This document shows, piece after piece, positions 1,936-29,798 of a stretch of DNA of 32,000 nt. The notes beneath the pieces were generated by a model that did not search any database, was not told where the DNA came from, and saw nothing but the letters and a program-made list of their open reading frames with translations. Every line of letters begins with the position of its first letter. Position 1 is the stretch's first letter. Source of the stretch: Faecalibaculum rodentium. Lineage in GTDB: Bacteria; Bacillota_I; Bacilli_A; Erysipelotrichales; Erysipelotrichaceae. The position numbers and the translations under genes were made by a program. The stretch covers positions 2,400,001 through 2,432,000 of the forward strand of contig NZ_CP011391.1 of the NCBI RefSeq assembly GCF_001564455.1. The letters run 5' to 3'.

Positions 1936-2023
1936 CGTTTACTGCTGTTGATGGAGGAAAGGCCGGCTGTCTGCTTCAGCTGCCTGAATCAGATGCCAGA
2001 CTGAGCGCCGGTCGTGGGTCATA

Positions 2024-2082
2024 GTACAAAAATAGGGTACAAATTTGATAAAATCAGGTAAGTTTGTACCCTATTTTTGTAC
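2024..2082. repeat. Perfect 20-bp inverted repeat hairpin (bidirectional terminator-like), stem built on TAGGGTACA
   Basis: GTACAAAAATAGGGTACAAA (2024..2043), 19-nt loop, TTTGTACCCTATTTTTGTAC (2063..2082). A/T tracts flank the GC core on both strands. Confidence 0.5.
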
Positions 2083-2756
2083 AAGGCACCGATACAAGAA
2101 ACGTATCCCACAGAAACCCAGATTCTGAGAGGCTTTATTCTTTGCGATCGATCCGCAATCTCTGTCTGTACTTTCTCCAGCAGCGGGAATGACAGCAATG
2201 AACAAAAGAGAATCGTCCGGAGCCTCGGACAGGAGTTGCGGAACATATTGGTTATTTCTGCGGAAAGAGAGACCAGATTAGCGAGGCTGAACATTGAGAT
2301 AACGGAACAGGAGAGCATTCTTTCCAGCCTGGATGGCAAGAAGGCAAGACTGAGGGCTGAACTGGAAGAGTACAGGAATATGGATTCATCCATCAGCCTG
2401 GTCTAATCCTTTGCTTGAAGAAAACTATTTCGAACCATGCTGGTATCGTTTAAACAGTGAGCAGCGGCAGGGAGTCACAAATGCCTGTCACAAACTTGAG
2501 AGCACCAGGAAGAAACTTTCAGAACTGGAATAAACCATTGTCAGGAACAATGCGATCATCACCAGGCAGAAACAGGCTTTCGATGTAAAAATGGATGAGT
2601 ACGCCAGACTGAAGACAGAGACAGACCGATACAAAGAGGTTCTGTCGGAGGCGGGATCACTGTCCGCTGTCTGGATAAATGAAGAGCCATTGTTTCATCT
2701 TTTATGGTTGCAGCGAAAGCAATGTGCAAAACAGGCATCTGACCTTAGAATAATTT
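2077..2756 (+). pseudogene. Decayed coiled-coil gene remnants (fragments in three frames), truncated by the IS3 element
   Basis: ORF 2077..2406 (…RLARLNIEITEQESILSSLDGKKARLRAELEEY), a second frame reading …YRLNSEQRQGVTNACHKLESTRKKLSELE* (about 2405..2530), and ORF 2591..2773 (MDEYARLKTETDRYKEVL…). No convincing start or SD. Confidence 0.3.
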
Positions 2757-2835
2757 ACGGACAGTCCATTTAGAGATTCTAAGAATACCGGTATCTATGT
2801 CATAGAACTACAATCACTATGAAAGAGGAAAATCT

Positions 2836-3135
2836 ATGGCAAAGAAACGTAAAACATTTACAGATGAATTCAAGCAGGATGCGGTTCAATTTTTGACTAA
2901 CCATCCAGAAATGACCGTTATAGAATGTGCTGAAACACTTGGTGTAGGCCGCAGCACCCTGGAAAGATGGAGGGCAGATTTCAACCGATCCGGTCTTTCA
3001 GCTGTGACAGCTCATAATAATGACAAGGAAGAAAAAGACCTTCTCAAAGAAAATGTCAGGCTTCAACGAGAACTCAGGGACTCACAGGAGGCTTTGAAGA
3101 TTCTAAAAAAAGCCATAAGCATTCTGGGAAACTGA
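2836..3135 (+). CDS. IS3-family transposase OrfA (HTH, 99 aa)
   Basis: SD AAGAGGA precedes ATG 2836. MAKKRKTFTDEFKQDAVQF…GVGRSTLERWRADF is the IS3/IS911-type HTH, followed by a leucine-zipper-like tail. Confidence 0.85.
   Translation: MAKKRKTFTDEFKQDAVQFLTNHPEMTVIECAETLGVGRSTLERWRADFNRSGLSAVTAHNNDKEEKDLLKENVRLQRELRDSQEALKILKKAISILGN
3105..3112 (+). promoter_or_regulatory. Programmed -1 ribosomal frameshift site A AAA AAA G
   Basis: A7G run. The zero frame reads cta aaa aaa gcc. A -1 slip continues agc cat aag… into the orfB frame (checked by hand). Confidence 0.7.
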
Positions 3136-4019
3136 AGCAGGTCGAATACGAACTTGTTGCCGAGGATCATAAAGCTGGAATCCAATTCTCGGTATCCAGG
3201 GTGCTTCATAAACTTGGTCTTTCAAGATCTGGCTATTACGACTATTTAAAGCGGAAACCCAGCCACCAGGAAAAGCGCAGGCATGATGTGAAAAAGGCCA
3301 TCCTTCAGATTTATGAAGACAGCCACGAAAACTACGGAGCGCCAAAAATCGCTAAAATCCTGAACTCAGGAGGGATCTCCATTACAGAAAGGACCGTTGG
3401 TGTTTATATGCGTCAAATGGGGATCCGAGCACAGTGGGTCAAGCCTCATACACAAACCACAATACGAAGTGATTTCAGTGGAAATCTGAAGAATCTTCTG
3501 GATAGAAACTTCTCTCCGGCTCACCCAAACTGCGTATGGTGCACAGATATCACCTATATCCACACAAAGCTGGACGGATTCGTTTACCTTGCCTGCATCA
3601 TGGATCTGTATTCCAGAAGGATCATTTCCTGGAAGCTTACAAAAACGCTGGACACAGGTCCAATTCTGAAATCGATCGAAGAAGCCAGAAAACGCCGGCC
3701 GTCCCAGGAACCGATAATGATTCATACGGACCGAGGAATCCACTATACCTGTGATCTGTACAGAAAACTGACCAGAGGAATGATTCGCAGTTATTCAGCA
3801 AAAGGAGTTCCGTATGACAACGCCTGTATTGAATCATTCCACTCCCTGATCAAGAGGGAATGGCTGAGCAGGTTCGATATACAGAACTACAGGCATGCAT
3901 ACCGACTGGTGAGTCAGTATATAGATGACTGGTACAACCCTGAACGGATACACAGCCACTGTGGATATATGTCCCCAGCAGAATATGAAGTAATGTTCCA
4001 AAGGACCAGCACTGACTGA
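3111..4019 (+). CDS. IS3-family transposase OrfB (DDE integrase domain), expressed as an OrfAB fusion by -1 frameshift
   Basis: The -1 frame is open from 3111 and in frame with ORF 3201..4019. DDE signature: WCTDITYI, HTDRGIHYT, YDNACIESFHSLIKREW. Confidence 0.85.
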   Translation, partial: SHKHSGKLKQVEYELVAEDHKAGIQFSVSRVLHKLGLSRSGYYDYLKRKPSHQEKRRHDVKKAILQIYEDSHENYGAPKIAKILNSGGISITERTVGVYMRQMGIRAQWVKPHTQTTIRSDFSGNLKNLLDRNFSPAHPNCVWCTDITYIHTKLDGFVYLACIMDLYSRRIISWKLTKTLDTGPILKSIEEARKRRPSQEPIMIHTDRGIHYTCDLYRKLTRGMIRSYSAKGVPYDNACIESFHSLIKREWLSRFDIQNYRHAYRLVSQYIDDWYNPERIHSHCGYMSPAEYEVMFQRTSTD

Positions 4020-4459
4020 GAAAGAATTCTGGAGCGCCCTTTACAGTGGGCTATCCCCTGGTAGACTGATGAGCCTTCAGCCAAGAACTGTCAGATATTG
4101 ACTCTTTGGATGAAGGCAAGAGAAAGGGGTCCAGGGGATAGTGGGCCCCACTGTCAAGGGAGGAAGCGGAGGAAATCTTTCGTAGAATTGGCAGTATCTG
4201 CCGACTCTCTAAAATCAGTGTCCGTTTTCTTGACATAGGACCAATCAGCCCGTGCCTGAAGGGTCCGGATGCCTGTTTTGATTATGTCCTCACCATGTAT
4301 CTCCCATTGTATTGCGTCTCTCGGTCGTCCACGACACCAGAAACAAGGTTACGTCTATCATCCGCGGACGATAGAGCTATCTGCCTGATTATCTGCTTTA
4401 TCTGCCTGAATCAGATCCGGGAAATTTTGCGCAGCCTCCTAAGCAACATCAGAAAACGC

Positions 4460-4508
4460 AAAAAAATAGGGTACAAACATTAAGGGTTTTCCTTAATATG
4501 TACCCTAT
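4460..4508 (-). terminator. Hairpin sharing the TAGGGTACA stem with 2024..2082; rho-independent terminator on the minus strand
   Basis: ATAGGGTACA (4466..4475)/TGTACCCTAT (4499..4508) plus ATTAAGG/CCTTAAT inner stem with a 5-nt loop. The A7 run 4460..4466 gives a T7 tail on the minus strand. Confidence 0.5.
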
Positions 4509-4692
4509 CACCTTTACCCGGCATGACTCTCATTCAGATTCTAAAGCAGGCAGATTGCCTGAGTTTCTGATTGTGGAAACTGCTCCACATCCAGCCACCG
4601 AAACATGTGCCAGACAATGCAGACCCTTCATCAGATGTATAATTTGCCTGCCCACCTTTGCAAACTCTGCAGATAGTTCGAATATTGAAGAC

Positions 4693-4730
4693 AACGCGCC
4701 AGGTCCTTCCGTCAAGGAAACTGGCGCGTT
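4693..4730 (-). terminator. GC-rich hairpin immediately after the stop of the small ORF
   Basis: AACGCGCCAG (4693..4702)/CTGGCGCGTT (4721..4730) with inner CCTT/AAGG pairing. Only a weak T tract on the minus strand. Confidence 0.4.
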
Positions 4731-4737
4731 ATTATAT

Positions 4738-4935
4738 TTATCTCATAAAACTTGGCTTTTTAAGTTTCGTGACATTTACCTTGCCTGTTTGGGCAGGCAT
4801 TTCAAGAGGCGATACATTATAATATGTACTTCTCTTATGAGCTGAAACACGAAAGCTATCAGGAAGCTTCGTATTCATGCTCCGCGAAATGTCATCTCTA
4901 ATCACCTTATTAATTACCAACTCTTCAAAATTCAT
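4738..4935 (-). CDS. Hypothetical small basic protein (65 aa), possible third gene of the AT-rich cassette
   Basis: ATG 4935..4933 lies 18 nt after the stop of the 821-aa gene, behind ACAGGAGA. A hairpin at 4693..4730 follows the stop. No recognisable motif. Confidence 0.35.
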   Translation of the reverse strand: MNFEELVINKVIRDDISRSMNTKLPDSFRVSAHKRSTYYNVSPLEMPAQTGKVNVTKLKKPSFMR

Positions 4936-4953
4936 TGTTCATCTCCTGTGATT

Positions 4954-7419
4954 CTATAATAATTCATTAAAACATTCTCTGTATTTATCAAAATACAGCT
5001 GGTTTACATATGAAAACAACTCGCTGGTTTTCAATGGACTACTGTTATGCATAGCAGACCGAAGCAAAAAGAGACTGGATTTTGGAGGGACTTTGTGAAA
5101 TGTTTTCTTCCACGCTTCCTGTTTCCTGCACTCCAACAAATATTGAAGAATTCGACCAAGATCTCCAACAAGAAACTTGTTTTCGATATTATACCAATCA
5201 CTGATTTCCGTGTGAAGTGAATTGATTATCCTCATCTGCATCTCTGTGATATAACTGATATCATTTTTCCTGGAATCCTTCATGTGTGGCTCATTAGAAA
5301 GCAGAGAATCAAAATCTGATTGAGTATAGTCTCTGGGATCCACAATTCCGTTATCAAGTATCAGCAATATGATTGCTATTCTAATACGGCTGTTGATCGA
5401 CATATCTCCGTTCTTTGGACTTTTGAACATTGCCAAAAGATACTCTTGAGGTGTCATCTTTAAAAGCTCTGCAGCAGATAGATCTGCATAGGCCTCTCTC
5501 ATGATCTCCAATGTTCGAAGTGTTCGATGATGAGCCTGATCCAATAAATCTGTCAGATTTGAAAACGCGGAAGCGTATACAATTGCAAAAATCTCAACTG
5601 GTATTGCACGCTGGTCGGATGCCATCATCTCATGAATAAATACATAATCATTCAATAATGATTTATATAAGTTTTCCTCTGATTTCAGCCCAATACCTTT
5701 GATCTCAGCTTCCATTCTGCTCGCTGTAAGATCTGAATCCCCAATAGATTCAACTTTGTTTTTCCATCTTCCTTTTTCACTGAACGACCAATCATCAAAA
5801 CTCTTCATTAACAAATCTTTCAGCCTGATAAAATCATCTTGTGTACGGTCTTTGGCTAATATATTTGCAAAGTCATCCAGAGAAAACTTTTCTCCCTCAA
5901 GAAAAGATACATAAAGATATGTTAAATTATCAAAATATGAATCAAGCAGGATTTTTGCCCGGGCTTTTCTTCTGCGGATTTTATCCCCGGCAAAATGGGA
6001 GATCTCGTGAGCCGCCGTGAACAAACCGTCACTCAATTTTAGTGTTGAACCGAAATTAACAGTATATATATACAACTCTCGTATGGTGTCATCAGATTGA
6101 AACGGTACTTTACAAATAGATGAATGATTGCTGATAGTCGGCGCAGAAAACACAAGGAATTCTTTACTCGGCTTGTCTTCCTTGCTGAGTGCTTCAATCA
6201 TGGTTTCCGCCAATACACTACTGAATCCAATCAAGGTTGCTGGTGCAATCCCATCAAACTCCCAATGGCTGTCTTTTCTTCGAAGCATGGACTGTGCATT
6301 GCAAAGCAGTAAATCCTGGAACGCTTTCGATGTAATGTCTATATTCTGTATAAGATCCTGATAAGCCTCTTCATCATTTTTCTGAATTATTTGCTGTCTT
6401 ATACTGTCAAAATCTGGTAACTTCCGCAATACAGATGACAGCAGCAAAGAAATTGGGTTTAACAATCTATTTTCTTCCTGTTGCCGTATGTACTGATATG
6501 CTGATTTGAAATAGGCATGATTCTTTGGCTCTACAGCATTATTACTCTCTACTCCTGATTTTCGAGAATTACCTACTCTATATGGCAGATTTCGATATAT
6601 ATCTTCACAAGCACTCCATGGGCTATATAACTTGACGTTAAACTGCTCAAATTGCTTAATCACTTTTTCAAAAACCGCAAAGAAGTTAGCTGCTCGTTTA
6701 TTCGTAAAGGGAACAACAACATCTATCGCTCCTGCTGTACTGGATATCCTGGAGTCTCCCTGAACATTGAGCAGGCTACCACCTGATATCGTTGTCTCAA
6801 ATCTGTTTTCAACAGAAAAGAAATCCCACATATCAGAGTTTTGCCTTGAAATATCAGACAGCTCATCTTTGTTTCTGATTTTGATTTTTAACTCGCCGGA
6901 CAATAACTCATCTGACTGTAGTTTGTCGGTTCCCGGGTTGATCATAACTATGGTATACATGTTCGAAACAGAGACACCAAATCTGCGCAGGCGCTTGATT
7001 TCCGATAAATATCTCCTCCACGCTTTTTCGTATGTATCTCCTGCCTGAAACAGAACCAGATTGTAAGTATCAAGGCTTTGAAACCAGCAATTATTTCTCC
7101 TGGCCCTTCCATTTGTCAATTCTGAGACAGCCTTCGGTATGGATGGAATGCTATTCCCAACATTTTCCGAGATAATCACGAACCCAACGAGGAGATAGGG
7201 AGACTGATCAATCCGCTTCCAAAACTGCTCCGGATCTTTCTTTTTATAGAATACCAGTGAATTAGACTGTGCTGAATCATTTATATTTATATCAGGTAAT
7301 TTATCATGAGCTTTCAGTAATTGCGGGAAGTGGTTGCGTGTCAATGACCTGAAAGAACCTAATACAGCGTCATTATTTGTCCCCCCATTCGGCTTCGCCA
7401 ATACGAGTCGGTAAATCAT
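4954..7419 (-). CDS. Hypothetical 821-aa cytosolic protein with an HExxH…ExxAD metallopeptidase-like signature (protein B)
   Basis: Long uninterrupted ORF. ATG 7419..7417 with SD AAAGAGG. ATGA overlap with the upstream gene. HEISH is encoded by rc of 5995..6009 and EAYAD by rc of 5482..5496. No signal peptide or TM segment. Confidence 0.85.
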   Translation of the reverse strand: MIYRLVLAKPNGGTNNDAVLGSFRSLTRNHFPQLLKAHDKLPDININDSAQSNSLVFYKKKDPEQFWKRIDQSPYLLVGFVIISENVGNSIPSIPKAVSELTNGRARRNNCWFQSLDTYNLVLFQAGDTYEKAWRRYLSEIKRLRRFGVSVSNMYTIVMINPGTDKLQSDELLSGELKIKIRNKDELSDISRQNSDMWDFFSVENRFETTISGGSLLNVQGDSRISSTAGAIDVVVPFTNKRAANFFAVFEKVIKQFEQFNVKLYSPWSACEDIYRNLPYRVGNSRKSGVESNNAVEPKNHAYFKSAYQYIRQQEENRLLNPISLLLSSVLRKLPDFDSIRQQIIQKNDEEAYQDLIQNIDITSKAFQDLLLCNAQSMLRRKDSHWEFDGIAPATLIGFSSVLAETMIEALSKEDKPSKEFLVFSAPTISNHSSICKVPFQSDDTIRELYIYTVNFGSTLKLSDGLFTAAHEISHFAGDKIRRRKARAKILLDSYFDNLTYLYVSFLEGEKFSLDDFANILAKDRTQDDFIRLKDLLMKSFDDWSFSEKGRWKNKVESIGDSDLTASRMEAEIKGIGLKSEENLYKSLLNDYVFIHEMMASDQRAIPVEIFAIVYASAFSNLTDLLDQAHHRTLRTLEIMREAYADLSAAELLKMTPQEYLLAMFKSPKNGDMSINSRIRIAIILLILDNGIVDPRDYTQSDFDSLLSNEPHMKDSRKNDISYITEMQMRIINSLHTEISDWYNIENKFLVGDLGRILQYLLECRKQEAWKKTFHKVPPKSSLFLLRSAMHNSSPLKTSELFSYVNQLYFDKYRECFNELL

Positions 7420-8717
7420 ACTAAGCCTCTTTCTAAGATGGCAATCAATTCAGATGGATAGCGACAAAAGAGTGTGGCATTGAATACTGCATTTCTGACC
7501 TGTTTGCCATACTCTTCTCCCTTCTTAGGAAACGTAATGCTGTTCCAGTCAACAAAGGACTTTGTGTTTAAGATATACCTGCAGGCATATTCATATACGT
7601 TCCGGATATGTTCAAAACTGGCAGCATCAGAATCTTTACTATCATAGAGTCCTGATTCCATATACCGCTGAACCGTTTGCTGCATCTCTTTATCTGGATA
7701 TTCGAGTTCAGCCAAAATGATAGGAGTCTTTACATTTTTCAGATTTGCTTCATCAAATAATTGACTGACATACAAAGCCGTAAATCCATGTAAGGCCGCA
7801 ATGTATGACCGGGCTACCTTTTCCCTCGAAGCTGTACCATCAGTAACAGTTTTCCCCAGCATGTCCAGATAACAGGTTAATAATGCTGATGCTTTTCCGG
7901 TACCATTTTTCTGTTCATGAAAAAACTGCAGCATAAGAAGAAAGAAAACCTGATCTGTAAATTTACGAGTAGATAGAGATTTGTCACAGGCCTTCAATTG
8001 CTCTGAGAACAGCCGTTTGAGAAAAATCTCTGATTCTCGTCTACCTCTTGGGGAGCATTCAAAACAGTTGAAAATAGTCGCCTCTGCCACATTATTCATC
8101 AATTCGATTGCAGAAGCCGGATCCTTCAACTTCTGCAATTCTCCATTCCAGTCAGTTTCTTCCGAGTTTTTTTGCAGATCTAACTCAATCTGTTTTAATA
8201 CATAACTGAGAATAATCGCTTTGTACTCTAATTCTTCATCATTGGACTTTAGAAACCGTTTCAACACCGAATAATCTACAGATAGTTTTTGAGGACTTAT
8301 CATTGAAACCAAATGGATTCTCTTCCTTGGTTCCACCTGTTGGTCAGCCGTTTCATTTTTTGTAATTTGCAGACCATTAGTCCTATTCTTTTTATTCCCA
8401 CGCTGTCTATATGTGTCCGGATTCATAGTCTTTACAGTGATAATGATGACAATCAGCACAACGGCTATATCAAGCAAGAGATGTAATAACGGATACTGTT
8501 CCGATATCATTACAAATCCCGGAATACCAGGTGTTTCTTCGTAATTCGTCATAATGATATACGACCCAAGAAGACCAAGAAACACTCCGATAACCAACAT
8601 TTGCATCCAGCTTCTGCGATTATAAATAGTATTTATGTGCTGAAAAACAGGAATACCCAGTATCTCGTCTTTCATGGCAATGATAATACCTATTAAAACG
8701 CCAAATACTATTTCCAT
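7416..8717 (-). CDS. Hypothetical 433-aa membrane protein: 3 N-terminal TM helices plus a ~330-aa helical cytoplasmic domain (protein A)
   Basis: ATG 8717..8715 behind SD AAGGAG (rc of 8722..8727). Hydrophobic segments at residues 1-15, 38-56 and 77-95. The rest is charged and helical with no motif I recognise. Confidence 0.85.
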   Translation of the reverse strand: MEIVFGVLIGIIIAMKDEILGIPVFQHINTIYNRRSWMQMLVIGVFLGLLGSYIIMTNYEETPGIPGFVMISEQYPLLHLLLDIAVVLIVIIITVKTMNPDTYRQRGNKKNRTNGLQITKNETADQQVEPRKRIHLVSMISPQKLSVDYSVLKRFLKSNDEELEYKAIILSYVLKQIELDLQKNSEETDWNGELQKLKDPASAIELMNNVAEATIFNCFECSPRGRRESEIFLKRLFSEQLKACDKSLSTRKFTDQVFFLLMLQFFHEQKNGTGKASALLTCYLDMLGKTVTDGTASREKVARSYIAALHGFTALYVSQLFDEANLKNVKTPIILAELEYPDKEMQQTVQRYMESGLYDSKDSDAASFEHIRNVYEYACRYILNTKSFVDWNSITFPKKGEEYGKQVRNAVFNATLFCRYPSELIAILERGLV

Positions 8718-8791
8718 AAAACTCCTTACTACATCTTCAAACGCAAAACCGTATAATATCTGTTTTATTGCGTTTTAGATTTTTGAAAATT

Positions 8792-8816
8792 GGGATTTCA
8801 GAAGCTCTGAAATCCC
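8792..8816 (-). terminator. Rho-independent terminator ending the pilus operon
   Basis: GGGATTTCAGA (8792..8802)/TCTGAAATCCC (8806..8816). On the minus strand it is followed by AATTTTCAAAAATC, 37 nt after the stop at 8853. Confidence 0.55.
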
Positions 8817-8852
8817 AAATCAGACATAAGAATTAAAAACCAATATACGAAC

Positions 8853-9506
8853 TCAAGCTTCCTTCTTCCGCCTCCACAGCACCACCAGTGCCAGTACGCT
8901 CAGGGAAATCCCTGCCAGCATCAGGAACTGATCCTGCTGCAGCTCAGCCGCCGTCTTCGCCTTTGACGGTTTCGTCGGTTTCTTTCTGTACGAGTCCGTC
9001 TTGCCAAAGGAAGTCGCATCATAGCTGCCGGACTTATCCGGGATCGTTGCCAGATAGGAAGTCATGACATACCCGGCTTCCCCCAGCTCAGTCTGACGGA
9101 CATAGTAGATCCCCAGGGGCAGATCGCTGAATGTCACCGTGTTGGATTCCCCGATGGTCCTCGTAGCATAGGGCTGCAGGCCTTCCTGATCGATGTAGTC
9201 ACCCACAAACTCAATCAGAGGATGAGACTCATCCGCATCCCAGTAGTTCAGATCCTGCTCCGTAAAGTGGAACCGGATTCCTTCAAACCCCGGTGCATTC
9301 TGATACTCATATGGACCATCCTCTGATACCCCAATGGTCGCCACCTGCCAGATGGCATAGGATGATCCCTCCAGCGGGTATTTTCCATTGAATGAAATCG
9401 TCAGGGATCCTCGCTCGTTCAAATCAATATCCTGCGCTGCAACGGGCATCGCCGCAAACAGCGGGATCAGCAGAAGGATCCATAACTTTCTCAAAATTCC
9501 CTTCAT
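8853..9506 (-). CDS. Small pilin-like/Cna-B-like surface protein (217 aa) with a C-terminal TM anchor but no LPXTG
   Basis: SD GAGGGAAA. Signal peptide MKGILRKLWILLLIPLFAAMPVAAQD. E-box-like YYVRQTELGEAGY. C-terminal hydrophobic stretch plus RRKKEA tail. Last gene of the pilus operon. Confidence 0.75.
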   Translation of the reverse strand: MKGILRKLWILLLIPLFAAMPVAAQDIDLNERGSLTISFNGKYPLEGSSYAIWQVATIGVSEDGPYEYQNAPGFEGIRFHFTEQDLNYWDADESHPLIEFVGDYIDQEGLQPYATRTIGESNTVTFSDLPLGIYYVRQTELGEAGYVMTSYLATIPDKSGSYDATSFGKTDSYRKKPTKPSKAKTAAELQQDQFLMLAGISLSVLALVVLWRRKKEA

Positions 9507-9523
9507 AAGTTTCCCTCAACTTT

Positions 9524-10351
9524 CTAACCTTTCTTTTTCCGTCCTCTGGCCATTACCCAGACAAAGAGTCCGATCAGGACAGGAACGGCAATGAACAGCG
9601 CCACAAGCTTCGAGTCAATGAGCATGGCCTCATTTCGTGTATTGATGAAATCATCCGGCAGGTTGTCCACACGGTGACCGCGTACCATTAGACGATGCGA
9701 ATTGATACCGTATGGCGTACATGTCATCAAAGTGACATAATCTTTTCCATCTTCTATCTCCAGCTTTGAATAATCTGTTGGCAGCACAATGGAAATCTGA
9801 TCTACCTGGTATGTCATAAGATTATCCAGTGACTGAATCATGAAATAATCCCCTTCCTCCAAATCATCAAGATCTGTAAGGAGCTTGGCAGATGGCAGTC
9901 CCCTGTGCCCTGAAATTACTGAATGAGTTCCCTGACCCCCGATCGGCAGAGAGGAACCCTCAATATGACCCAGAGCAGTATTTAAAACTGAATCATCCGT
10001 TCCATGATAGATGGGCAGGTTTACACGCAAAGACGGAATTTTCAGGATTCCCATCATTCCATCTTCCGTAATATTCAATGTCTCCTCATATTTTTTGTGC
10101 AATGCATCCGAAGGATTGAACCGGTAAGTCTCCTTAGAAAGCAAAGAATTGTATTCCTTTGCTCCCTCAATCATCTGATCATATTCCTCCGGACTCATGC
10201 GATTTACCGTATCCTCATAGGATACAACCGCCCTGGATGCATACATTGAATTCACCCAGTCCGAAACTGTCGGATACAACAGCAGGGACAACCCTGCCGT
10301 GAAAATGATTATGAGGAGAATCGTGGTGAGATTCTTTCTTATAAACTTCAT
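9524..10351 (-). CDS. srtC: Class C (pilin-polymerising) sortase
   Basis: N- and C-terminal TM anchors, VISGHRGLP His motif, TLMTCTPYGINSHRLMVRGHRV (TLxTC plus Arg). Sits next to the pilin genes. Confidence 0.9.
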   Translation of the reverse strand: MKFIRKNLTTILLIIIFTAGLSLLLYPTVSDWVNSMYASRAVVSYEDTVNRMSPEEYDQMIEGAKEYNSLLSKETYRFNPSDALHKKYEETLNITEDGMMGILKIPSLRVNLPIYHGTDDSVLNTALGHIEGSSLPIGGQGTHSVISGHRGLPSAKLLTDLDDLEEGDYFMIQSLDNLMTYQVDQISIVLPTDYSKLEIEDGKDYVTLMTCTPYGINSHRLMVRGHRVDNLPDDFINTRNEAMLIDSKLVALFIAVPVLIGLFVWVMARGRKKKG

Positions 10352-10370
10352 TGCAGAGTTCTCCCTGCCA

Positions 10371-10401
10371 TTGAATCAGGAAGGCAGTCTTCCTGATTCA
10401 A
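10371..10401 (-). promoter_or_regulatory. Perfect 13-bp stem hairpin between the major pilin and sortase genes (attenuator or mRNA-stability element)
   Basis: TTGAATCAGGAAG (10371..10383), loop GCAGT, CTTCCTGATTCAA (10389..10401). No U tract afterwards on the minus strand. Confidence 0.45.
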
Positions 10402-10429
10402 CGACAGTAAATCAACTTGTCAAAAGAGC

Positions 10430-11899
10430 TTATGCAGCCATTCTCTTGCGAACAACGAATAGTACTGCTGCACCAGCAACCATCAGGCCGCCAATCGTGT
10501 ACAGAGCCGTTGTACCCATACCACCTGTGGAAGGCAGAGTCGCACCACCCTTGGTGTTCTCGATGTTTGCCTTCACTTCATTCATAGAAGGATTCGAAAC
10601 ATTAGTATCATTAAGAGTTACATTAAACTGCTGACGGGATGTCATCAGGTTATAACCAGCCGGTGCTTTGGTTTCCTGCAGCCAGTAGGAACCTTCAGGC
10701 AGACCAGTCACGTGGAACTGACCATCAGTTCCAGAAGTCAGAGTGGTTACAGAACTGTCACCATCTACAGGAGCCTGTACATAACGATATGTATCTCCAT
10801 CCTTGATAAAACTCAGTTTTGTTCCTTCAGTGGCTTCTGTATAAATCTCGAATTCTGCACCAGCAAGAGTGGTAGCCTCGTCGTTTGCATCCACCTTTGT
10901 GAAGTCAGCTTTTCCAAGGAAGATTTTTACAAAGTCATTGACTGTATCGTTATCTCCCGGCTTAACTACGACAGTGTTCTGTACGGATCCTGCAGAAACT
11001 GCAGCATCCGTTACTGTTGCCCGGTAAGTAATCGTTACAGAAGTGGAAGCTGTTAATCTCTGCAGATAAGTATCTTTGAAAGCAACAGTGATTTTCTGGC
11101 CATCTACAGAGACTGAATAATCTTTGTCATTTGTCAATGTGCTAGGAGTTATAGAGATAGAATCAGCAACAAGTTCCAGACCCGTTCCCATCGTATCGGT
11201 GATGGTGAAAGATTTCAGACCAGGTTCAATGTTTGTGGTAATCTCAAAGGATTTGATTTCTCCAACATAAGCGGTTGAGTGATCGGCATCTACTTGAGTA
11301 TTTTCAGGATCATTAACCTTCTTATCAACATTAGTCGGTTTGTTCTTATCGGTAATTGTCACGCTGGGAGTTGCTGTATTAATGCTGGCAATCGTTCCTG
11401 CATCTGTTTTTACATAGTAATAACCATAAGGAACATCTGTAATGGACAATGCACCTGCTGTATCTGCCGTCACAGATTTATGATCGAATACTTTATTCAA
11501 ATCATCAACTTCTTTCGAATTCAGGAATGTAGCAATATCTTGACCTGTGATTCCAGTCTTAACTGCTACGTTATACTTGCCATTTGCAGTAGCCTGGAAA
11601 TTAAATAATTCAGGATTTGCTGAAGCAAAGAATGTTTTCTGCTCTTCTGTCGCAATATAAGAAGCAGTTCTTTTATCATCAAACTCTACGCCAGGGTTGA
11701 TTACATCATGAGTCTGTTCTGTAGCGCTTACCTCAAAAATCTGATAGGCAGTATACGTTTTTCCCTTCTGGGCATTGGCAATGGTAATGGTTCCCTCGCC
11801 GGCGGCAAGTTCTGCAGCATTGACTGTTGTCAGGCCAACACCAGCCACCATAGTAGCTGCTGCGGCAACAGAGAACATCTTTTTAAAATTTTTGTTCAT
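10430..11899 (-). CDS. Major (backbone) pilin, LPXTG-anchored (489 aa)
   Basis: Start moved to ATG 11899 (MNKNFKKMFSVAAAATMVAGVGLTTVNA signal peptide). E-box YWLQETKAPAGY. LPSTG (rc of 10523..10537) plus hydrophobic tail and RKR. Confidence 0.85.
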   Translation of the reverse strand: MNKNFKKMFSVAAAATMVAGVGLTTVNAAELAAGEGTITIANAQKGKTYTAYQIFEVSATEQTHDVINPGVEFDDKRTASYIATEEQKTFFASANPELFNFQATANGKYNVAVKTGITGQDIATFLNSKEVDDLNKVFDHKSVTADTAGALSITDVPYGYYYVKTDAGTIASINTATPSVTITDKNKPTNVDKKVNDPENTQVDADHSTAYVGEIKSFEITTNIEPGLKSFTITDTMGTGLELVADSISITPSTLTNDKDYSVSVDGQKITVAFKDTYLQRLTASTSVTITYRATVTDAAVSAGSVQNTVVVKPGDNDTVNDFVKIFLGKADFTKVDANDEATTLAGAEFEIYTEATEGTKLSFIKDGDTYRYVQAPVDGDSSVTTLTSGTDGQFHVTGLPEGSYWLQETKAPAGYNLMTSRQQFNVTLNDTNVSNPSMNEVKANIENTKGGATLPSTGGMGTTALYTIGGLMVAGAAVLFVVRKRMAA

Positions 11900-11987
11900 A
11901 ATTTCCTTTCTTTTCCTTTCCGGTATCAAATTCCCGGATTTTTTATTTATCGAATACAAATCCCCTTAAGGTCAGGGGCGGAGGCTT

Positions 11988-14900
11988 TTACTTCAACCCC
12001 CTTTCTTTGCCCCTAAGCCTCTTTTTGTATCCGTACATGAGCAGGCTACCGGCAATCATTGCCGCGCCTGCGGATGTAAGAAGTTGTGTACCGGATCCAC
12101 CGGTGTTGGGCAGCGGTTTACCTGCCTCATTTTTAATAGTAAGCGTTACACGTCTTCCATTAATTCCAACTGATACATACCTATCAGAATCAAATTCACC
12201 TGGTTTTCCATTACCATCCAGAATTTCAACAGTAGTATCCTTGCCATTGAATGTAATCTTGAAGATCACATTGTCCTGCAGATATCCGGCAGGCGGTGTT
12301 TTCTCCTTCAGGTAATAAACTTTTCCGTTTTGAACTCGTCCAATATCTATATGACCTGCATTCTCTCCGGAACCGCTCGTCGTATATTCTCTAAGCGGAT
12401 CTTTCGTCAGGTCATCATAGATTTCGAATACGGCACCATTCAGTTTTTCACTACCATCACTGGACACTTTGAATACATCCAGCAAAGCAGCATCAGTCTG
12501 AACAACAGGTTTCTGATATGGAGTAATCTCTATAACTCCGCTACCGGGATTTGTTGCAAGCCATTGTGTTTCGGATTCTTTATATGGATTCTTATATCGG
12601 TAATTCAGAGCAGAACTTTCATTTGAGAAGAATCCTCCGCGGTTGCTCGAAGTTGTGTTGCCAGATGGCCGGTAATCACTGTTGGAATCTCCAGATTCGT
12701 TGTATGTCATCTGCTGATTATCAAACTTCTCATACGCTTCGGCAGTTGTTTCTACATTGAAACTGAGTTCATATCTGTAGGCAGGATCCATGGACCAGTC
12801 CGGATTGAATTTCAGCTGAATTGTCTTGGATTTCAGATCAACAAACACGCCACCAGTACTGCCAAACACCTGAGCATTTGTCCAGTTTTTGACATTCACA
12901 TTCGTGCCAATCGTATCCCTGTTCTCAAAGCTGAAATTCGAAGTTTCATTCGGTAATGCCTGTTTCGGACTTACTTCACTCTTATTCAGGGAAGGTGTCT
13001 GATAGATGATGACTGGTTCAGGTGCTGCAGCTCCTGTTGGAATTGCCTTGACAATGATAGTTGTGTTTACTAAATCGAAATTGACATTTTGAGAAAGTGT
13101 ATCCTGAATCACCAAATTGTCACAGCGTGGGCCAATGCACATCAGATATAGCTGTTCCTGCAGAGAAGTTACATCTGTTGCGCTGCCACAAAATCCATCT
13201 TTAGAGGGCAAATCTGGGACATCTATTGTTTTCCCTTCATAAGTAAATTTTCCTACTCCATTTGGATTTTTGGCCAAGAATACGGTCGGAGTTGTATCGT
13301 AAGCAATTGTACTTAATGTAAATTGCCTAGTTGAATCTGCATATAATGCATTGATCTGGCTTACGACTCCCTTTGCATCAACCATATTGGTCTCATTGCT
13401 ACCACCGATTTCATACCTATTGCCATCATTATGTACAGTAGGTACGCCGTCACTTAGGAAGATTACATATGTGGAATAACCTCTTGGCGTCTGATCAATG
13501 ACGCCTGAAAGCTTTAAAAGTGCATCCTCATAGTTCGTGCCTCCCAAGTCCCCACTCTGAAGCGATGTACCATTCAACTTGTTCTTAACACTGCTAAAAT
13601 CCTTATATACGGTATTATCTATAGTTGCAAGAGACGCAAAAGTAATCAATCGAACCTGGTTCATAGAATTCAACTTGTAGAAATCCTGTAAAACACCAGT
13701 ATTACCAACCAAAGTATTTTTAAGATTCGACCAGCGAGACGTACTTGTGTTACCCAGATTTTCATTCATACTCGCTGAAGTATCCAGAACCAGAATCAAA
13801 TTGACAGGGTTCTCATCTGCAATTGGTCCGGCATCCAGATACAAGCGGTACGAATCAGAAAGGTTCTTATCTGATCCATATCCCGCATCAGGATTCACGA
13901 CAGAATCTCCCAGATAATCAATCATTTTCGAATGCGGGATTTCCTTTTCCGCCATGGGAATGGTTCCGGAACCAAATGATCCTGAAGCAACCTTGGTGTT
14001 TGTAATGGTGTACTGGATATCCAGTTTCTCCTGCGCAACCACTTCATATATGTGAGCTCTATGTTGAGAGGAATCCGCCCTAAAACTTGAAGTATACCAC
14101 AAATGATCAGAACCGTAGTCAATATAATAGTTCTCAGACCTAAGCCCATCATCATTAACAATGAATGACGATCTGTTATTAGGAGTACTCGTAAGTCTCA
14201 AAACACCATAATTAATCCTTAAATAATAGTTGTTATTACTCAACGCGAAGCCCCCATTATGGCTGGCAGCCGTCCACAGGATCGAGTCAGTAAGCAAACC
14301 ATCATAAGTATTTGTTGAATAGCTGCTGCCATTTCTTCCCAGGGCCCTGTTTTGGTCATCGTTGAGAATCACGTACTGCTTGCCCGCTTCCAGCTGAGAT
14401 GCAGGTTGTGATTTAACTGTTCGGAAATTATCATCTACAACTTCCTGCCGCTGGTAGGAAGCGAGATACCCATCAAGGGTTTCTGTAACGTAGAACTTTG
14501 TATAGTCCGCAGTCTGATCCGGGTATTTCTCTTTGAACTTAGTCAGAAGTTCGCTGTAACTGATTTCCCGTTTCCAGGTTCTTGATCCGGAATCATAGCT
14601 GATCTCGGTTTCCATGATGACCGGATTGGGATCTACCATACCCTCCAGCAGGTCCGGCTGATAGGTTTCAGGATTGTAGTCTCCATAGCGGATTTGGACA
14701 GGAACAGAAGTAACTTCACTTTCAAGAGGCTGCTTCGTCCATTTCTTTTCAATGATGAATGAGTTCGGCGTCACATCTGTTTCCGCAGCTGCGTTAATTC
14801 CATCCGTCTCTTCATTGGCCGTCTTCAGAACCACATCTCCTGAATAGATAGTTTCTGTACCATCTGAAGCTGTTTCTTCTGAACCAGTCATCACTTCTTC

Positions 14901-16265
14901 CAGTTTCTGAACAGGAACAAGAGGTTTCAGCTTGTAGGCCGCTCCCTCAGTGTTTCCACCGCCTGTATAAGAATCTGTGCTTACCTCCTGTGTAATCCCT
15001 ACACGCCAGTGGTGAGTCAGATTGTCGTCTGTAACCAGAATCGTCAGTTTATCGGAAGTTTCACCCTCCAGATCTTTCCAGGCTTCAGAATCTGCGTTTT
15101 CTGTATCGTTGTACTGCCACTGATAATGCAGGATTTCACCATCCTCGAATCCCTGAGGAACAGCCGTCAATGTGATTTCGTCACCAGTCTGTACTTTATT
15201 GTCAGCGCCCTCGATGGAAACCGTTTTTGTCTGTTGGTCAGATTCGGAATCCTCAGGATTGTCCTCTCCGGAACCATCACCTGGAGTCTCAGTGTCTGCA
15301 CCATTCTCGGATGGTGCTTTTTCTGAGATCTGCAGAGAACCGATCAGCTGTGCAGCAGAGCGGTCAATTACCTTTACAGATTTTTCGACATCTCCCGCAT
15401 ATATTTTTGCTTTCTTTGATGCTTCATCATAACTTTCCAGGATACCGGACTTTCTCTTGCCTTCATCATCCTGATAGAACACCACATCCCCGGCCTTCGC
15501 CTCTTTGGCATCCTTGACCAGATCTTCGGACCGGGCAGCGATCCATTCATCGGCATTTGACTTCCAGCCGGCTTTCGCATTGGCATACTTCAGAACCCAG
15601 CCGGTGAAGGCATTGTTCCAGTCACCATATCGGTCACCAGCCCATTCCCCGTACCTGGTAAAGCCGTCTTCCGTGCCGTCATCGTTGACCCGGAAGTTCT
15701 TGTCCGATTCCTTGTATCCCTTCTGGCTTTCCGCCACCTGCAAAACTCGTTCCCGGACATCTTCTTTCAGATCAGCCGGAACCGTCTTTTTCCAGTCCTC
15801 TTCCGTTTCCACGGCTTCCGGATCGGATTCGCATTGTCTGGAATGGGTGTGTTCCTCTTTCCCACACATCGGTTCGCTGCTCTTTTTGCAGTCGTCGGTA
15901 TGGATATGTCCCTCCGTGCCTTCCGACTCATTCTTATCGCAGATCAGAACCTGTTCTGTCAGGTAACAGGTCTCATCATGCACATGGAGTTCGCTTTCTT
16001 CCTGTCCGCAGATCAGTGTCTGCATTTCCTGGTAACAGGATTCGTCATGGACATGACCTTCCGTACTGTCAGATTCTTCCTGACCGCAAAGATATTCCCC
16101 GCTTCTGTAACACTCTTCTATATGCGTGTGCTCTTCCTTGCCGCAGTGTGTCTCGCTGGAAAGCGTCACGGCTGGCAGGATCAGCGCATAGGTCGTGCAG
16201 AACACGACGACCGCTGCCAGAGCACCCACCAGTTTTTTCCGTATATGGCGGTGTCTCTTCATCAT
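11988..16265 (-). CDS. Pilus tip adhesin (1425 aa): Cys/His repeats, CHAP-like domain, vWA domain with MIDAS, Cna-B-like domain, LPNTG
   Basis: ATG 16265 behind GAAAGGAAA. N-terminal anchor/signal. VLDTSAS MIDAS motif (rc of 13770..13784). YYLKEKTPPAGY E-box. LPNTG (rc of 12099..12113) plus a TM and basic tail. Confidence 0.85.
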   Translation of the reverse strand: MMKRHRHIRKKLVGALAAVVVFCTTYALILPAVTLSSETHCGKEEHTHIEECYRSGEYLCGQEESDSTEGHVHDESCYQEMQTLICGQEESELHVHDETCYLTEQVLICDKNESEGTEGHIHTDDCKKSSEPMCGKEEHTHSRQCESDPEAVETEEDWKKTVPADLKEDVRERVLQVAESQKGYKESDKNFRVNDDGTEDGFTRYGEWAGDRYGDWNNAFTGWVLKYANAKAGWKSNADEWIAARSEDLVKDAKEAKAGDVVFYQDDEGKRKSGILESYDEASKKAKIYAGDVEKSVKVIDRSAAQLIGSLQISEKAPSENGADTETPGDGSGEDNPEDSESDQQTKTVSIEGADNKVQTGDEITLTAVPQGFEDGEILHYQWQYNDTENADSEAWKDLEGETSDKLTILVTDDNLTHHWRVGITQEVSTDSYTGGGNTEGAAYKLKPLVPVQKLEEVMTGSEETASDGTETIYSGDVVLKTANEETDGINAAAETDVTPNSFIIEKKWTKQPLESEVTSVPVQIRYGDYNPETYQPDLLEGMVDPNPVIMETEISYDSGSRTWKREISYSELLTKFKEKYPDQTADYTKFYVTETLDGYLASYQRQEVVDDNFRTVKSQPASQLEAGKQYVILNDDQNRALGRNGSSYSTNTYDGLLTDSILWTAASHNGGFALSNNNYYLRINYGVLRLTSTPNNRSSFIVNDDGLRSENYYIDYGSDHLWYTSSFRADSSQHRAHIYEVVAQEKLDIQYTITNTKVASGSFGSGTIPMAEKEIPHSKMIDYLGDSVVNPDAGYGSDKNLSDSYRLYLDAGPIADENPVNLILVLDTSASMNENLGNTSTSRWSNLKNTLVGNTGVLQDFYKLNSMNQVRLITFASLATIDNTVYKDFSSVKNKLNGTSLQSGDLGGTNYEDALLKLSGVIDQTPRGYSTYVIFLSDGVPTVHNDGNRYEIGGSNETNMVDAKGVVSQINALYADSTRQFTLSTIAYDTTPTVFLAKNPNGVGKFTYEGKTIDVPDLPSKDGFCGSATDVTSLQEQLYLMCIGPRCDNLVIQDTLSQNVNFDLVNTTIIVKAIPTGAAAPEPVIIYQTPSLNKSEVSPKQALPNETSNFSFENRDTIGTNVNVKNWTNAQVFGSTGGVFVDLKSKTIQLKFNPDWSMDPAYRYELSFNVETTAEAYEKFDNQQMTYNESGDSNSDYRPSGNTTSSNRGGFFSNESSALNYRYKNPYKESETQWLATNPGSGVIEITPYQKPVVQTDAALLDVFKVSSDGSEKLNGAVFEIYDDLTKDPLREYTTSGSGENAGHIDIGRVQNGKVYYLKEKTPPAGYLQDNVIFKITFNGKDTTVEILDGNGKPGEFDSDRYVSVGINGRRVTLTIKNEAGKPLPNTGGSGTQLLTSAGAAMIAGSLLMYGYKKRLRGKERGLK

Positions 16266-16277
16266 CAAATTTCCTTT

Positions 16278-16871
16278 CTACAAAGTCCCTGCCGCATCAA
16301 GAGGCCAGAGCCGCCAGACCAGCTTGCCGACAATCTGTTCTTCGGCAATGGGCCCGATGGCCTTGGTTCTGGAGTCCAGGGAAACGCTCCGGTGGTCCCC
16401 CATCACAAACCACCGGTCTTCCGGCACCTGGTAGGGGTAGTCGATGTTCGTTTCACCCAGTGCTTTTTCCTCCAGATACGGTTCCTCCAGTTCCTTGCCG
16501 TTGACGTACACAGTGCCGTCGTCCGCAAGATCCACCCAGTCTCCCGGTCCGGCGATGACGCGCTTGACGAGGAGCTTGTTGTTGTAATAGAAGGCAATGA
16601 CATCCCCCGGCTGGAATTCTGTGGTTTTCACCGTGGCGACAATGTTGCCTTCGCTGAGGGTGGGTGTCATGGAGTTTCCGTAGATGCGCAGGACCGGGAG
16701 CCACAGGGTTGCGGCGAGAATCGCCAGTGCGGCGACGACCACGAGCACCGCAACGGTGCTTTTGAGTGTGTCCCGGAACTTTTTCTGGTACAAAATCCGT
16801 TTCTTTTCTTTCTTCCAGTCCGCCGAGTCAAACTGATCGGCCGATGGCATCTCTTTCTTATGGCTGCTCAT
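16278..16871 (-). CDS. Type I signal peptidase (197 aa), catalytic Ser/Lys retained
   Basis: Start is ATG 16871 (ATGA overlap with the upstream ORF). TM anchor, GNSMTPT (Ser box), LVKRVIAGPGD (Lys box), GDHRSVSLDSR. Confidence 0.85.
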   Translation of the reverse strand: MSSHKKEMPSADQFDSADWKKEKKRILYQKKFRDTLKSTVAVLVVVAALAILAATLWLPVLRIYGNSMTPTLSEGNIVATVKTTEFQPGDVIAFYYNNKLLVKRVIAGPGDWVDLADDGTVYVNGKELEEPYLEEKALGETNIDYPYQVPEDRWFVMGDHRSVSLDSRTKAIGPIAEEQIVGKLVWRLWPLDAAGTL

Positions 16872-17128
16872 GGAGCGGCCCTTTCTGTCTGTTGTCTGAT
16901 CTCGTTGAGGTAATCCTCGGCTGCCTGCTGGGCGGCTTCGAACACGCCGTTGAGCTGCAGGGCGGCCTGCGCGATGTTCCCGGCTTTCCGGCACTCGATG
17001 CGCCGGCTTTCGAGCTCGTCGCTGAGTTTCTGCACGAGTGTCTTCAGCCGTTCGTTTTCTTCTGTACTTTCAATGAGAAGATCCACGAGCTGAAGACGGG
17101 ACAGCTTTTTCAATTCCTTTTCTTTCAT
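16868..17128 (-). CDS. Small coiled-coil protein (86 aa), function unknown
   Basis: ATG 17128. MKEKELKKLSRLQLVDLLIESTEENERLKTL…AGNIAQAALQLNGVFEAAQQAAEDYL. Stop overlaps the signal peptidase start (ATGA). SD is weak. Confidence 0.55.
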   Translation of the reverse strand: MKEKELKKLSRLQLVDLLIESTEENERLKTLVQKLSDELESRRIECRKAGNIAQAALQLNGVFEAAQQAAEDYLNEIRQQTERAAP

Positions 17129-26958: not shown

Positions 26959-27162
26959 AGTTTTTCCTTTCTTTTTCCTTTTGCAGACCTGCCCCTTCCC
27001 AGATCTGCTTTGTTCTGCCGAACACAAAAACTGCCTGTTCCCCTTGCCCCTGCGTGGTTCATATCCGGTACCCGGACAGGATCCGGCTTTCGAATCCCTC
27101 ATTTCCGCACGGTGCCTGCAGGCAGCGCCTTTTGTTTCGGTAAAACGCTTTGTAAAACATAC

Positions 27163-28245: not shown

Positions 28246-29046
28246 ATGAAAGCAATTTGGCATACAACGGATGTCGTTCATGGGGGAACGACTTTGAAGG
28301 ACCGGCAGGCACCGGAGAACGGAAACATGGCGCTCCATGTCTGTCAGGATCCGGTGGCGGTGCTGGAAAACCGCCGGATACTCGCAGGCCAGACCCTGCC
28401 TCTGGACCACTGGGCGCTGCCGTGGCAGAAACATACGGCGAACAGTCACCGGGTGACGGCGGATGAACGCGGCAGGGGGGCAGCGGACAAAGACACGAGC
28501 ATCATGGATGTGGATGCGGTGTGGATCACGGAGCCCGATACGCTGATCGGGGTCTTCACGGCTGACTGTGTGGGGCTGCTTGTGGCCGATCCGGGGATTC
28601 CGCTGGTGGCGTGCATTCATTCAGGGTGGAAGGGCACGGCCCAGGCCATCACGCTGAAGACCATGCGGGAACTCATCTCTGTGGGCGGACTGGATCCCGC
28701 CCGGGCGCAGGCCTGGTTCTCCCCTTCGATTCTTCAGGACTCCCTGGAGGTGGGGCCGGAGGTCATCGAAGCCATGAAACCATTGAAGGAACTAGGTCTG
28801 GATGTGGATGCCTTCTGGCGCCGTTCTGAGGATCCGGACAGTGACCGGCTGTATCTGGACAACCAGGGGCTGAATGTGGCGATGCTGCGCATGGCGGGTC
28901 TGCCGGCAAAAAACATCCATGTGTCGGATCTGGACACCAAAACACATCCCGACTGTTTCAGTTACCGGAATGAAGGACGGAAGACCGGGGAGCACTTCAC
29001 ATTTGGATGGATCGAGTCCTCAGATCCGGGAACGGGAGCGTCATGA
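28246..29046 (+). CDS. pgeF: YfiH/PgeF-family (DUF152, purine nucleoside phosphorylase/peptidoglycan editing factor-like) protein
   Basis: Motifs VFTADCVGLLVAD, ACIHSGWKGT, PDCFSYRNEGRKTG. The start is uncertain (ATG 28246 or GTG 28213; no clear SD). The stop overlaps the next start (ATGA). Confidence 0.75.
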   Translation: MKAIWHTTDVVHGGTTLKDRQAPENGNMALHVCQDPVAVLENRRILAGQTLPLDHWALPWQKHTANSHRVTADERGRGAADKDTSIMDVDAVWITEPDTLIGVFTADCVGLLVADPGIPLVACIHSGWKGTAQAITLKTMRELISVGGLDPARAQAWFSPSILQDSLEVGPEVIEAMKPLKELGLDVDAFWRRSEDPDSDRLYLDNQGLNVAMLRMAGLPAKNIHVSDLDTKTHPDCFSYRNEGRKTGEHFTFGWIESSDPGTGAS

Positions 29047-29798
29047 GGGCGTCGAAGGAGAAGCGCCTGGGACGGATCCTGGAAATTCTGGAGCGGGAGG
29101 AGAAAATGCGGGTGCGCGAACTGGCGGATGAACTGGAAATCACGCCGGAGACCCTGCGCTCAGATCTCGGGGACCTTGTGCGGATGAGTGTGGTGGAGCG
29201 TGAACACGGCTATGTGCGGCTGGTGCAGGCGCCGCAGGAAACGCCCATGGCCATCCGCTCGGGGCATCATGTGCAGGAGAAGATCGCGGTGGCCTACGCC
29301 GCGCTGTCAACGGTGAAGGACGGCCAGGTGATTTATGTGGATGCCGGCAGTACGGTATTGCTGGGGCTCCAGGCGCTGGCGCGGCGCAGGGACCTGCTGG
29401 TGGCCACCAATTCGCTGCCCGGAGCGCTGAAACTGGCGCAGATGAACATCCGGACCCTGGTGGTGGGCGGTATGGCCTACAATCCCGGGGAGAGGACCTA
29501 TGGCAATTTCGCCACCAGTGTGGTGGACCACATTCAGTTTGATGTGGTGTTTCTGGGAACCGACGGGTTTCAGGATGCGCGGGGATTTACGACAGTGCAC
29601 GACAATGAGCTGGGGCTCAAGCGCCATCTGATTGCCCAGACGGAAAAAGTCGTGGTGGTCTGCGACCGGTCAAAGTTTCATGACAAGGCTCCGTTCATGT
29701 TCTGCACCTTCGCGGAGGCAGATCTGCTGGTGACAAACCGGCTGACGGAACAGGAGCGCAACGAGGTGGATGGTGTCAGGGAAATCCTGGAGGTATAG
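29043..29798 (+). CDS. DeoR-family transcriptional regulator (251 aa)
   Basis: ATG 29043 behind GGGAG. N-terminal HTH (KRLGRILEILEREEKMRVRELADELEITPETLRSDL) plus a DeoR C-terminal sugar-phosphate sensor domain (VIYVDAGSTV…VFLGTDG). Confidence 0.85.
   Translation: MRASKEKRLGRILEILEREEKMRVRELADELEITPETLRSDLGDLVRMSVVEREHGYVRLVQAPQETPMAIRSGHHVQEKIAVAYAALSTVKDGQVIYVDAGSTVLLGLQALARRRDLLVATNSLPGALKLAQMNIRTLVVGGMAYNPGERTYGNFATSVVDHIQFDVVFLGTDGFQDARGFTTVHDNELGLKRHLIAQTEKVVVVCDRSKFHDKAPFMFCTFAEADLLVTNRLTEQERNEVDGVREILEV

Follow-up and report, generated by a model that had tools for sequence, protein, structure and literature searches.

A probable gluzincin-type metallopeptidase family with a long, variable insert between its HExxH and ExxAD motifs, represented in Faecalibaculum rodentium and gut Clostridia

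Here we describe gene B of Faecalibaculum rodentium, an open reading frame (ORF) whose product carries two short motifs of a candidate zinc peptidase site at an unusually large distance from one another. The gene lies at 4954..7419 (-) of a 32,000-nucleotide stretch of contig NZ_CP011391.1 (positions 2,400,001 to 2,432,000 of the forward strand), referred to below as the window, and encodes an 821-amino-acid (aa) protein annotated as "hypothetical protein". The protein has neither a transmembrane (TM) segment nor a signal peptide, which points to a soluble product. The first motif, HEISH, occupies B residues 471-475 (5995-6009 (-), codons cac gag atc tcc cat) in the context LFTAAHEISHFAG; the second, EAYAD, occupies residues 642-646 (5482-5496 (-)) in the context MREAYADLSAAELL. 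An earlier reading made from the letters of the window and its predicted ORFs, here called the sequence-only reading, had interpreted this pair as a split signature of the M48 type, and its motif coordinates and flanking sequences proved right when checked on the ORF translation. It had put the motifs about 170 residues apart; the exact distance from H471 to E642 is 171 residues. Immediately upstream lies gene A (7416..8717 (-)), the stop codon of which overlaps the start codon of B (ATGA); its 433-aa product has three N-terminal TM segments and a soluble part of ~330 aa.

Calculated from the composition of B itself, the chance expectation is 0.014 per protein for HExxH, near the estimate given in the sequence-only reading, and 0.20 per protein for ExxAD, a value that, taken alone, would leave room for a fortuitous pairing of motifs in a non-enzymatic protein. 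Conservation at the sequence level is the weightier argument, because both motifs are retained without exception in the relatives found. Direct family searches with B yielded no match in Pfam, NCBIfam, PHROGs, PADLOC or PDB sequences, tblastn against phage and plasmid collections yielded none either, and a word-based homologue search returned B alone, as did a search with a diverse alignment. The 90%-identity cluster of B corresponds to the F. rodentium "hypothetical protein" WP_217947068; no other lineage of its branch is known, and B alone represents the family in F. rodentium. A HMMER search of 1.8 billion representative proteins identified one real relative, P0028 (E 3.9e-5), in an alignment that covers B residues 330-685 and shows HELSH for HEISH and RETYAD for REAYAD. 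P0028, used as seed, recovered 47 family members in gut Clostridia, ~780 aa in length and all without a Pfam domain, and a genome scan contributed six further divergent members (loci L015-L020). Overall, the family consists of about 50 distant relatives with 13-23% identity to B.

Within an alignment of 45 sequences, where B shares 16-22% identity with the other members, the invariant residues include H471, E472, H475, G478, R482, R484, R487, R641, E642, A645 and D646. Among the 15 most diverse members, aligned with a mean column identity of 29%, only 11 columns are invariant: P427, H471, E472, H475, G478, R482, R484, R487, E642, D646 and Y760. All of these except P427 and Y760, nine of the 11, belong to the two motifs and to a family-specific Gly and Arg motif directly after HExxH, G478-x3-R482-x-R484-x2-R487 (5959..5988 (-)). 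The alanine of the second motif, A645, is replaced by Ser in two relatives (REVFSD and REIFSD), with the Glu and the Asp invariant. The conservation in homologues on which the sequence-only reading had staked its claim is thus found for both motifs. A HExxH expected just 0.014 times, and two motifs held constant across about 50 homologues in which nearly all else varies, refute the chance reading, to which we attach a negligible probability. At the level of sequence, HExxH and ExxAD are supported as belonging together in a conserved family core, and the family looks like a real, unannotated protease family, located mostly on mobile DNA, not a chance motif.

HEXXH together with EXXXD as its second element has been defined as the gluzincin signature in a structure paper on BlaR1 (PMC9834060), and E642-x3-D646 matches the ExxxD part of it at the sequence level. 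More broadly, the third ligand of gluzincins is a Glu on a downstream helix, in an ExxxD or (E,H)xx(A,F,T,S,G) motif (PMC9834060, PMC7213743). Downstream of HExxH, the 15 diverse sequences contain no invariant Glu, Asp or His besides E642 and D646, leaving these two as the sole candidates for a third ligand. We propose that H471 and H475, on the active-site helix, would bind the metal, presumably zinc, together with E642 on a later long helix, and that E472 would serve as the catalytic base. By analogy with BlaR1 and thermolysin, D646, the aspartate of ExxxD, may pair with one of the invariant arginines (R482, R484, R487 or R641).

An AlphaFold2 (AF2) model of B residues 335-821 (predicted template modelling score 0.73) consists, in order, of a helix (391-412), three strands (421-428, 434-437 and 448-455), a helix leading into HEISH (462-474), an insert and a long helix (619-652). 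The predicted three-stranded sheet and active-site helix correspond to 5995..6159 (-). Modelling confidence is highest for the long helix (5464..5565 (-)), the proposed "glutamate helix" with E642, at a predicted local distance difference test (pLDDT) score of 84-92. A backing helix, a small sheet, an active-site helix and a later glutamate helix constitute the zincin or minigluzincin order, and the secondary-structure order predicted for B fits a zincin. The minigluzincin has been presented as the minimal scaffold of M48 and M56 catalytic domains (BepA preprint).

Most of the unusual motif spacing is due to a helical, charged insert at residues 505-618 (5566..5907 (-)), which is weakly conserved, is modelled with low confidence and has a D/E/K/R content of 32%. 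Helices are predicted between the motifs at residues 484-504, 514-523, 527-546 and 566-601. Here the sequence-only reading, which had described a charged helical segment, agrees with the prediction, and the length of this segment varies among relatives: in 50 family members the first His and the Glu lie 129-208 aa apart (median 141), compared with 59-83 aa in E. coli HtpX, YcaL, LoiP and BepA and 28 aa in R388 ArdC. A distance of 41 aa is reported for BlaR1 (PMC9834060). The two halves of the site would thus be kept apart by some 90-140 additional residues, a helical insert that differs between lineages. It may lie over or beside the active-site cleft, most likely gating access to it, by analogy with the alpha6 loop of BepA, an extra element between the HExxH and Glu helices that covers the active site (BepA preprint). 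The possible autoinhibition raised by the sequence-only reading would be an analogy to the same loop.

The position of the family among zincins was addressed with core sequences, that is, 17 family members with the insert cut out. In a Pfam scan, four of the 17 matched Peptidase_M48 (best E 2.7e-5), four matched MPTase-PolyVal (PF18818, the ArdC-type family) weakly, with E-values of 0.055-0.2 and scores of ~13 against a cut-off of 27.5 bits, and single cores weakly matched WLM, SprT-like or Zn_peptidase_2. In hhalign comparisons the strand-plus-HExxH block of the B family aligned with the same blocks of HtpX/BepA and of ArdC. Searches of PDB sequences gave nothing with the full-family profile and noise with the insert-deleted core profile (glycogen phosphorylase and leucine-rich repeat proteins).

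One interpretation of these matches, and that of the sequence-only reading, is that B is a true M48 enzyme of the Ste24, HtpX or BepA type with a large insert between its HExxH and ExxAD helices. B has in common with M48 (HtpX, BepA, LoiP, YcaL, Ste24) and M56 (BlaR1) the combination of HExxH with ExxAD or ExxxD; all four E. coli M48 enzymes show HExxH and then ExxAD, and HtpX has HEISH...EFHAD, its HEISH being identical to that of B. The glutamate of the EQEAD motif of BepA, E201, is a metal ligand (BepA preprint). Extra elements between the two helices also have precedents in this group, namely, in BepA, the lid loop alpha6 that covers the active site and, in HtpX, a longer stretch. The intact protein at L019, a divergent relative, exceeds the Pfam M48 (PF01435) gathering score (21.8 vs 20.3 bits). 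The family core aligned with the four E. coli enzymes in hhalign with 26% probability (P 7e-4) over a block of strand, "LL" and HExxH, and the second-best local alignment paired RExYAD with rExeAD, both motifs being colinear at full extension. A Foldseek comparison of the C-terminal model gave noise against PDB and nothing significant against BFVD, where ranks 1, 3 and 4 were phage proteins annotated as Peptidase M48 or BepA at non-significant E-values of 0.2-0.4. However, the L019 match is confined to model positions 57-104, the HExxH part; neither B nor the 44 relatives aligned with it had a Pfam M48 match, a global hhalign alignment to M48 failed, and the ArdC-type profile scores better. 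The family spacing is also well outside the M48 range, and 171 residues in B compare with 41 in BlaR1; the G-x3-R-x-R-x2-R motif after HExxH is absent from M48, and most M48 and M56 enzymes reside in the membrane or the periplasm, unlike the soluble B. Membership of M48 proper is therefore unlikely in our view. What survives of the sequence-only reading is a pair of motifs forming a joint conserved core with a zincin-like order of elements; the M48 assignment is not established.

The best profile-profile score obtained was to ArdC, with 74.5% probability and P 2.7e-5 for the family core against a seven-sequence ArdC profile, and HExxHxxGxxxR in common. Against R388 ArdC alone, hhalign returned one alignment (52%, P 1.4e-4) that spans HExxH and places E642 on ArdC E229, a residue mutated as the metal-coordinating glutamate (PMC7213743). 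ArdC resembles B in being a gluzincin with HExxH on the active-site helix and its Glu on a later helix and in having G(+7) and R(+11) after HExxH (ArdC sequence HEATHWTGHKSR); ArdC is also found on conjugative elements. This raises the possibility that the B core is an ArdC-type "MPTase-PolyVal" zincin and that the family serves mobile elements in counter-defence or establishment and is not a host defence. The main family indeed occurs in regions of integrative and conjugative elements (ICEs), beside genes for DUF3846/3848/3849, Toprim, SNF2-type giant proteins and relaxases. The low PF18818 scores speak against such an assignment, as do the spacing of only 28 aa in ArdC compared with 171 in B, the Glu-helix motif EExxAE where the B family has RExYAD, and the lack of a Pfam match to the N-terminal single-stranded DNA-binding domain of ArdC in the N-termini of B and its relatives. 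The copy in the window lies outside any recognisable conjugative element, and the protease activity of ArdC is dispensable for anti-restriction (PMC7213743). We consider the ArdC-type explanation tentative, worth keeping in view but doubtful.

Two further zincin groups were considered. Metzincins (HExxHxxGxxH/D, with the third ligand at +10) were rejected: the glycine at +7 is invariant, but position +10 is Ile in B and a variable non-ligand residue in relatives. The M78 (ImmA/IrrE) enzymes are small gluzincins, signal-triggered regulatory proteases on mobile elements, and have a similar ExxA(N/D)xxA...LL...P appearance. In a single-sequence hhalign control, the M78 protein encoded at L022 did not align with the family core at HExxH (P 0.14), and an adjacent helix-turn-helix (HTH) repressor is not a consistent feature of the B family. 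In these profile comparisons ArdC-type peptidases score better than M48, and M78 gives nothing. From the sequence comparisons we conclude that the core of the B family is probably that of a gluzincin, for which M48-like and ArdC-like affiliations are both candidates, and that B can be filed under neither.

A different view of the same motifs would be that HExxH is a real metal site to which E642 does not contribute as third ligand, the RExYAD helix being a substrate-binding or structural element, or that the protein is a catalytically dead scaffold. Compatible with this would be the alignments of the Glu helix to those of M48 and ArdC, non-significant when taken alone (P 0.3-0.4), and the failure of Foldseek to return a zincin. 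The invariance of E642 and D646, the sole such acidic residues after HExxH in the 15 diverse members, and the confidence with which their helix is modelled are both harder to accommodate in this view, and the invariance of E472, the proposed catalytic residue, speaks against a pseudo-enzyme. We hold it to be very unlikely.

The genomic context of the family is characterised by a recurrent partner. A multi-pass membrane-protein gene precedes, and often overlaps, the protease gene in 13 of the 16 distinct places examined; such an upstream gene was found in the window and at L007-L015, L019 and L022-L025. In all main-family loci the partner, of ~400-455 aa with around four TM segments, is encoded before the protease gene. 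The conserved feature is the arrangement itself, a multi-pass membrane protein and then the protease. Most loci of the family are situated on conjugative elements or in DNA that is horizontally acquired or rich in defence genes. The main-family cassettes, which also include a small ORF described below, mostly adjoin the relaxase, coupling-protein, Toprim and DUF3846/3848/3849 genes of conjugative elements; for others the neighbours are TIR-WD40, Abi_2, HipA or ThiF/E2/ubiquitin-like genes. Type IV secretion system genes and recombinases likewise occur in the neighbourhood. All F. rodentium contigs retrieved show the A-B pair downstream of a sortase-pilus operon, with insertion sequence (IS) elements coming next. 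With a GC content of ~39%, the pair belongs in the window to a low-GC stretch that has hrcA-grpE on one side and the gene for a giant surface protein on the other.

Taken together, we favour the reading, with a probability of roughly 0.6, that B is a soluble multi-domain gluzincin-type zinc metallopeptidase whose site is split by a variable helical insert, likely acting as a signal-gated protease of a mobile-element conflict or regulatory module. Signal gating and the placement in such a module are suggested by the pairing with a membrane protein and by residence on mobile DNA. The upstream membrane protein may be the sensor, the anchor or the target of the protease, and the module may serve defence, ArdC-like counter-defence or another purpose.

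Several observations weigh against this reading. Searches of Pfam, NCBIfam and PDB sequences gave nothing significant for B itself, Foldseek returned no match at E<0.2 in PDB or BFVD, the hhalign probabilities reach no more than 26-75%, with matches driven largely by short motifs, and the Glu-helix alignments add nothing significant by themselves. The gating role is a guess, because the insert is modelled with low confidence. As to the module, the F. rodentium A-B pair is located behind the last genes of a pilus operon and in no obvious defence island or ICE, and PADLOC-DB 2.0 gave no match at a meaningful E-value for B, A or their relatives. The partners of B, of the L015 and L019 proteins and of the main family have no detectable homology to one another, and a 63-aa ORF conserved elsewhere in the family (described below) was searched for in the window and is absent from it, as it is from L015-L020.

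Divergent relatives in L017 and L020 are placed differently: they lack an upstream membrane partner and adjoin genes for DACNH proteins and weak DAC (diadenylate cyclase) matches (L017 9214-10386 and L020 2555-3805), the DACNH match in L017 reaching 32.6 bits, above the cut-off. DACNG-DACNH-DAC proteins have been tied to anti-phage signalling, with no mention of a protease effector (two August 2026 bioRxiv preprints). In L020, the 1.6 kb between the DAC-like and protease genes (3806-5440) contain no ORF longer than ~97 aa on either strand. A bolder version of the favoured reading, which we put forward as speculative, would have B and its relatives form an undescribed gluzincin family in which a regulatory lid splits the active site, the protease being the effector of a new mobile-element conflict module (a multi-pass membrane partner and the protease, in some cases with the conserved 63-aa protein) that in some lineages is wired to DACNH-DAC-type nucleotide cyclases. 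If this wiring is true, the family would supply a protease effector for a form of diadenylate-cyclase-based immune signalling that has been described only in the 2026 preprints, and there without a protease.

What is new here is a probable, unannotated gluzincin family with an unusually long and variable split between its motifs. The motifs point to a likely catalytic function for proteins that are annotated only as "hypothetical protein" and are absent from Pfam, NCBIfam, PHROGs and PADLOC, and that are encoded in cargo regions of conjugative elements in gut Clostridia and in an acquired island of the mouse-gut commensal F. rodentium. Residues H471, E472, H475, E642 and D646, along with the insert 505-618, offer themselves as mutational targets. 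Should the insert prove to be a gate, lid-regulated gluzincins would gain a tractable soluble model in this family, and the conserved pairing with a membrane protein points to a candidate signalling, defence or counter-defence module.

The remainder of B is less well defined. The N-terminal ~334 residues (6418..7419 (-)) form a poorly modelled alpha/beta region; in the full-length AF2 model the mean pLDDT of the N-terminal 335 residues is 56, and a Foldseek search of that model against PDB gave weak ferredoxin-like matches alone for this part. The only detectable similarity to the N-termini of relatives (hhalign P 0.0066) is a motif, F-x-S-[IL]-T-R-x-H-F-P, found at 7285-7359 (B residues 21-45) and at P0032 residues 86-110, an offset of ~65 residues. 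A 490-aa relative in L017 lacks the N-terminal region entirely. A palm, GGDEF or Cas10-like N-terminal domain, prompted by "ELSD" and "GNED" in relatives, was considered and dropped; no result supported it, and the N-terminus of B barely aligns.

In every main-family locus a conserved ORF of 62-64 aa (consensus ...DRIPGTNKVRTYCANASLYSRESDL...) stands before the membrane-protein gene, giving a three-gene cassette. It lies at 6410-6601 in L007, 6485-6676 in L008, 5743-5934 in L023, 6531-6722 in L024, 6374-6562 in L022 and 6444-6638 in L011, and is also present in L009, L010, L012-L014 and L025. The 63-aa protein may have a regulatory role, or serve the protease as substrate or precursor. Neighbours of the kind seen in defence islands comprise two TIR-WD40 genes, Abi_2, a ThiF/E2/multi-ubiquitin trio with an HTH-M78 regulator, and HipA (L010 408-5755 and 11190-12137, L022 2273-5997 and L007 12387-13298).

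Searches with gene A in Pfam, NCBIfam, PHROGs, PADLOC and PDB sequences gave no match. Directly upstream of the A-B pair, on the same strand, lies a complete sortase-dependent pilus operon (8853-16994 (-)). It encodes an S26 signal peptidase (16278-16994), two LPXTG proteins (one of 1426 aa and a minor pilin of 217 aa), a SpaH/EbpB-type major pilin and a class C sortase; according to Pfam, the 1426-aa protein contains a von Willebrand factor A domain at the near-identical locus L001. A promoter and terminator scan around A-B, otherwise uninformative, showed no terminator between the last pilin gene and A, nor after B.

The GC content is 38-45% at window positions ~2000-16000, covering the IS element, B, A and the pilus genes, and 55-62% in the flanks (hrcA-grpE at 34-1672 and a DeoR regulator at 29007-29798), and because of this difference the low-GC region suggests a horizontally acquired island. 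Just downstream of B, at 2836-4019 (+), ORFs of 99 aa and 272 aa resemble by eye an IS3-family transposase pair, the 272-aa ORF showing a DDE-type HTDRG...YDNACIESF pattern; IS1595 transposases occupy the corresponding position in other F. rodentium contigs (L001). At 18199-27102 (-), the window encodes the giant surface protein, of 2967 aa, with seven DUF11 repeats and five FctA/Spy0128-like isopeptide domains.

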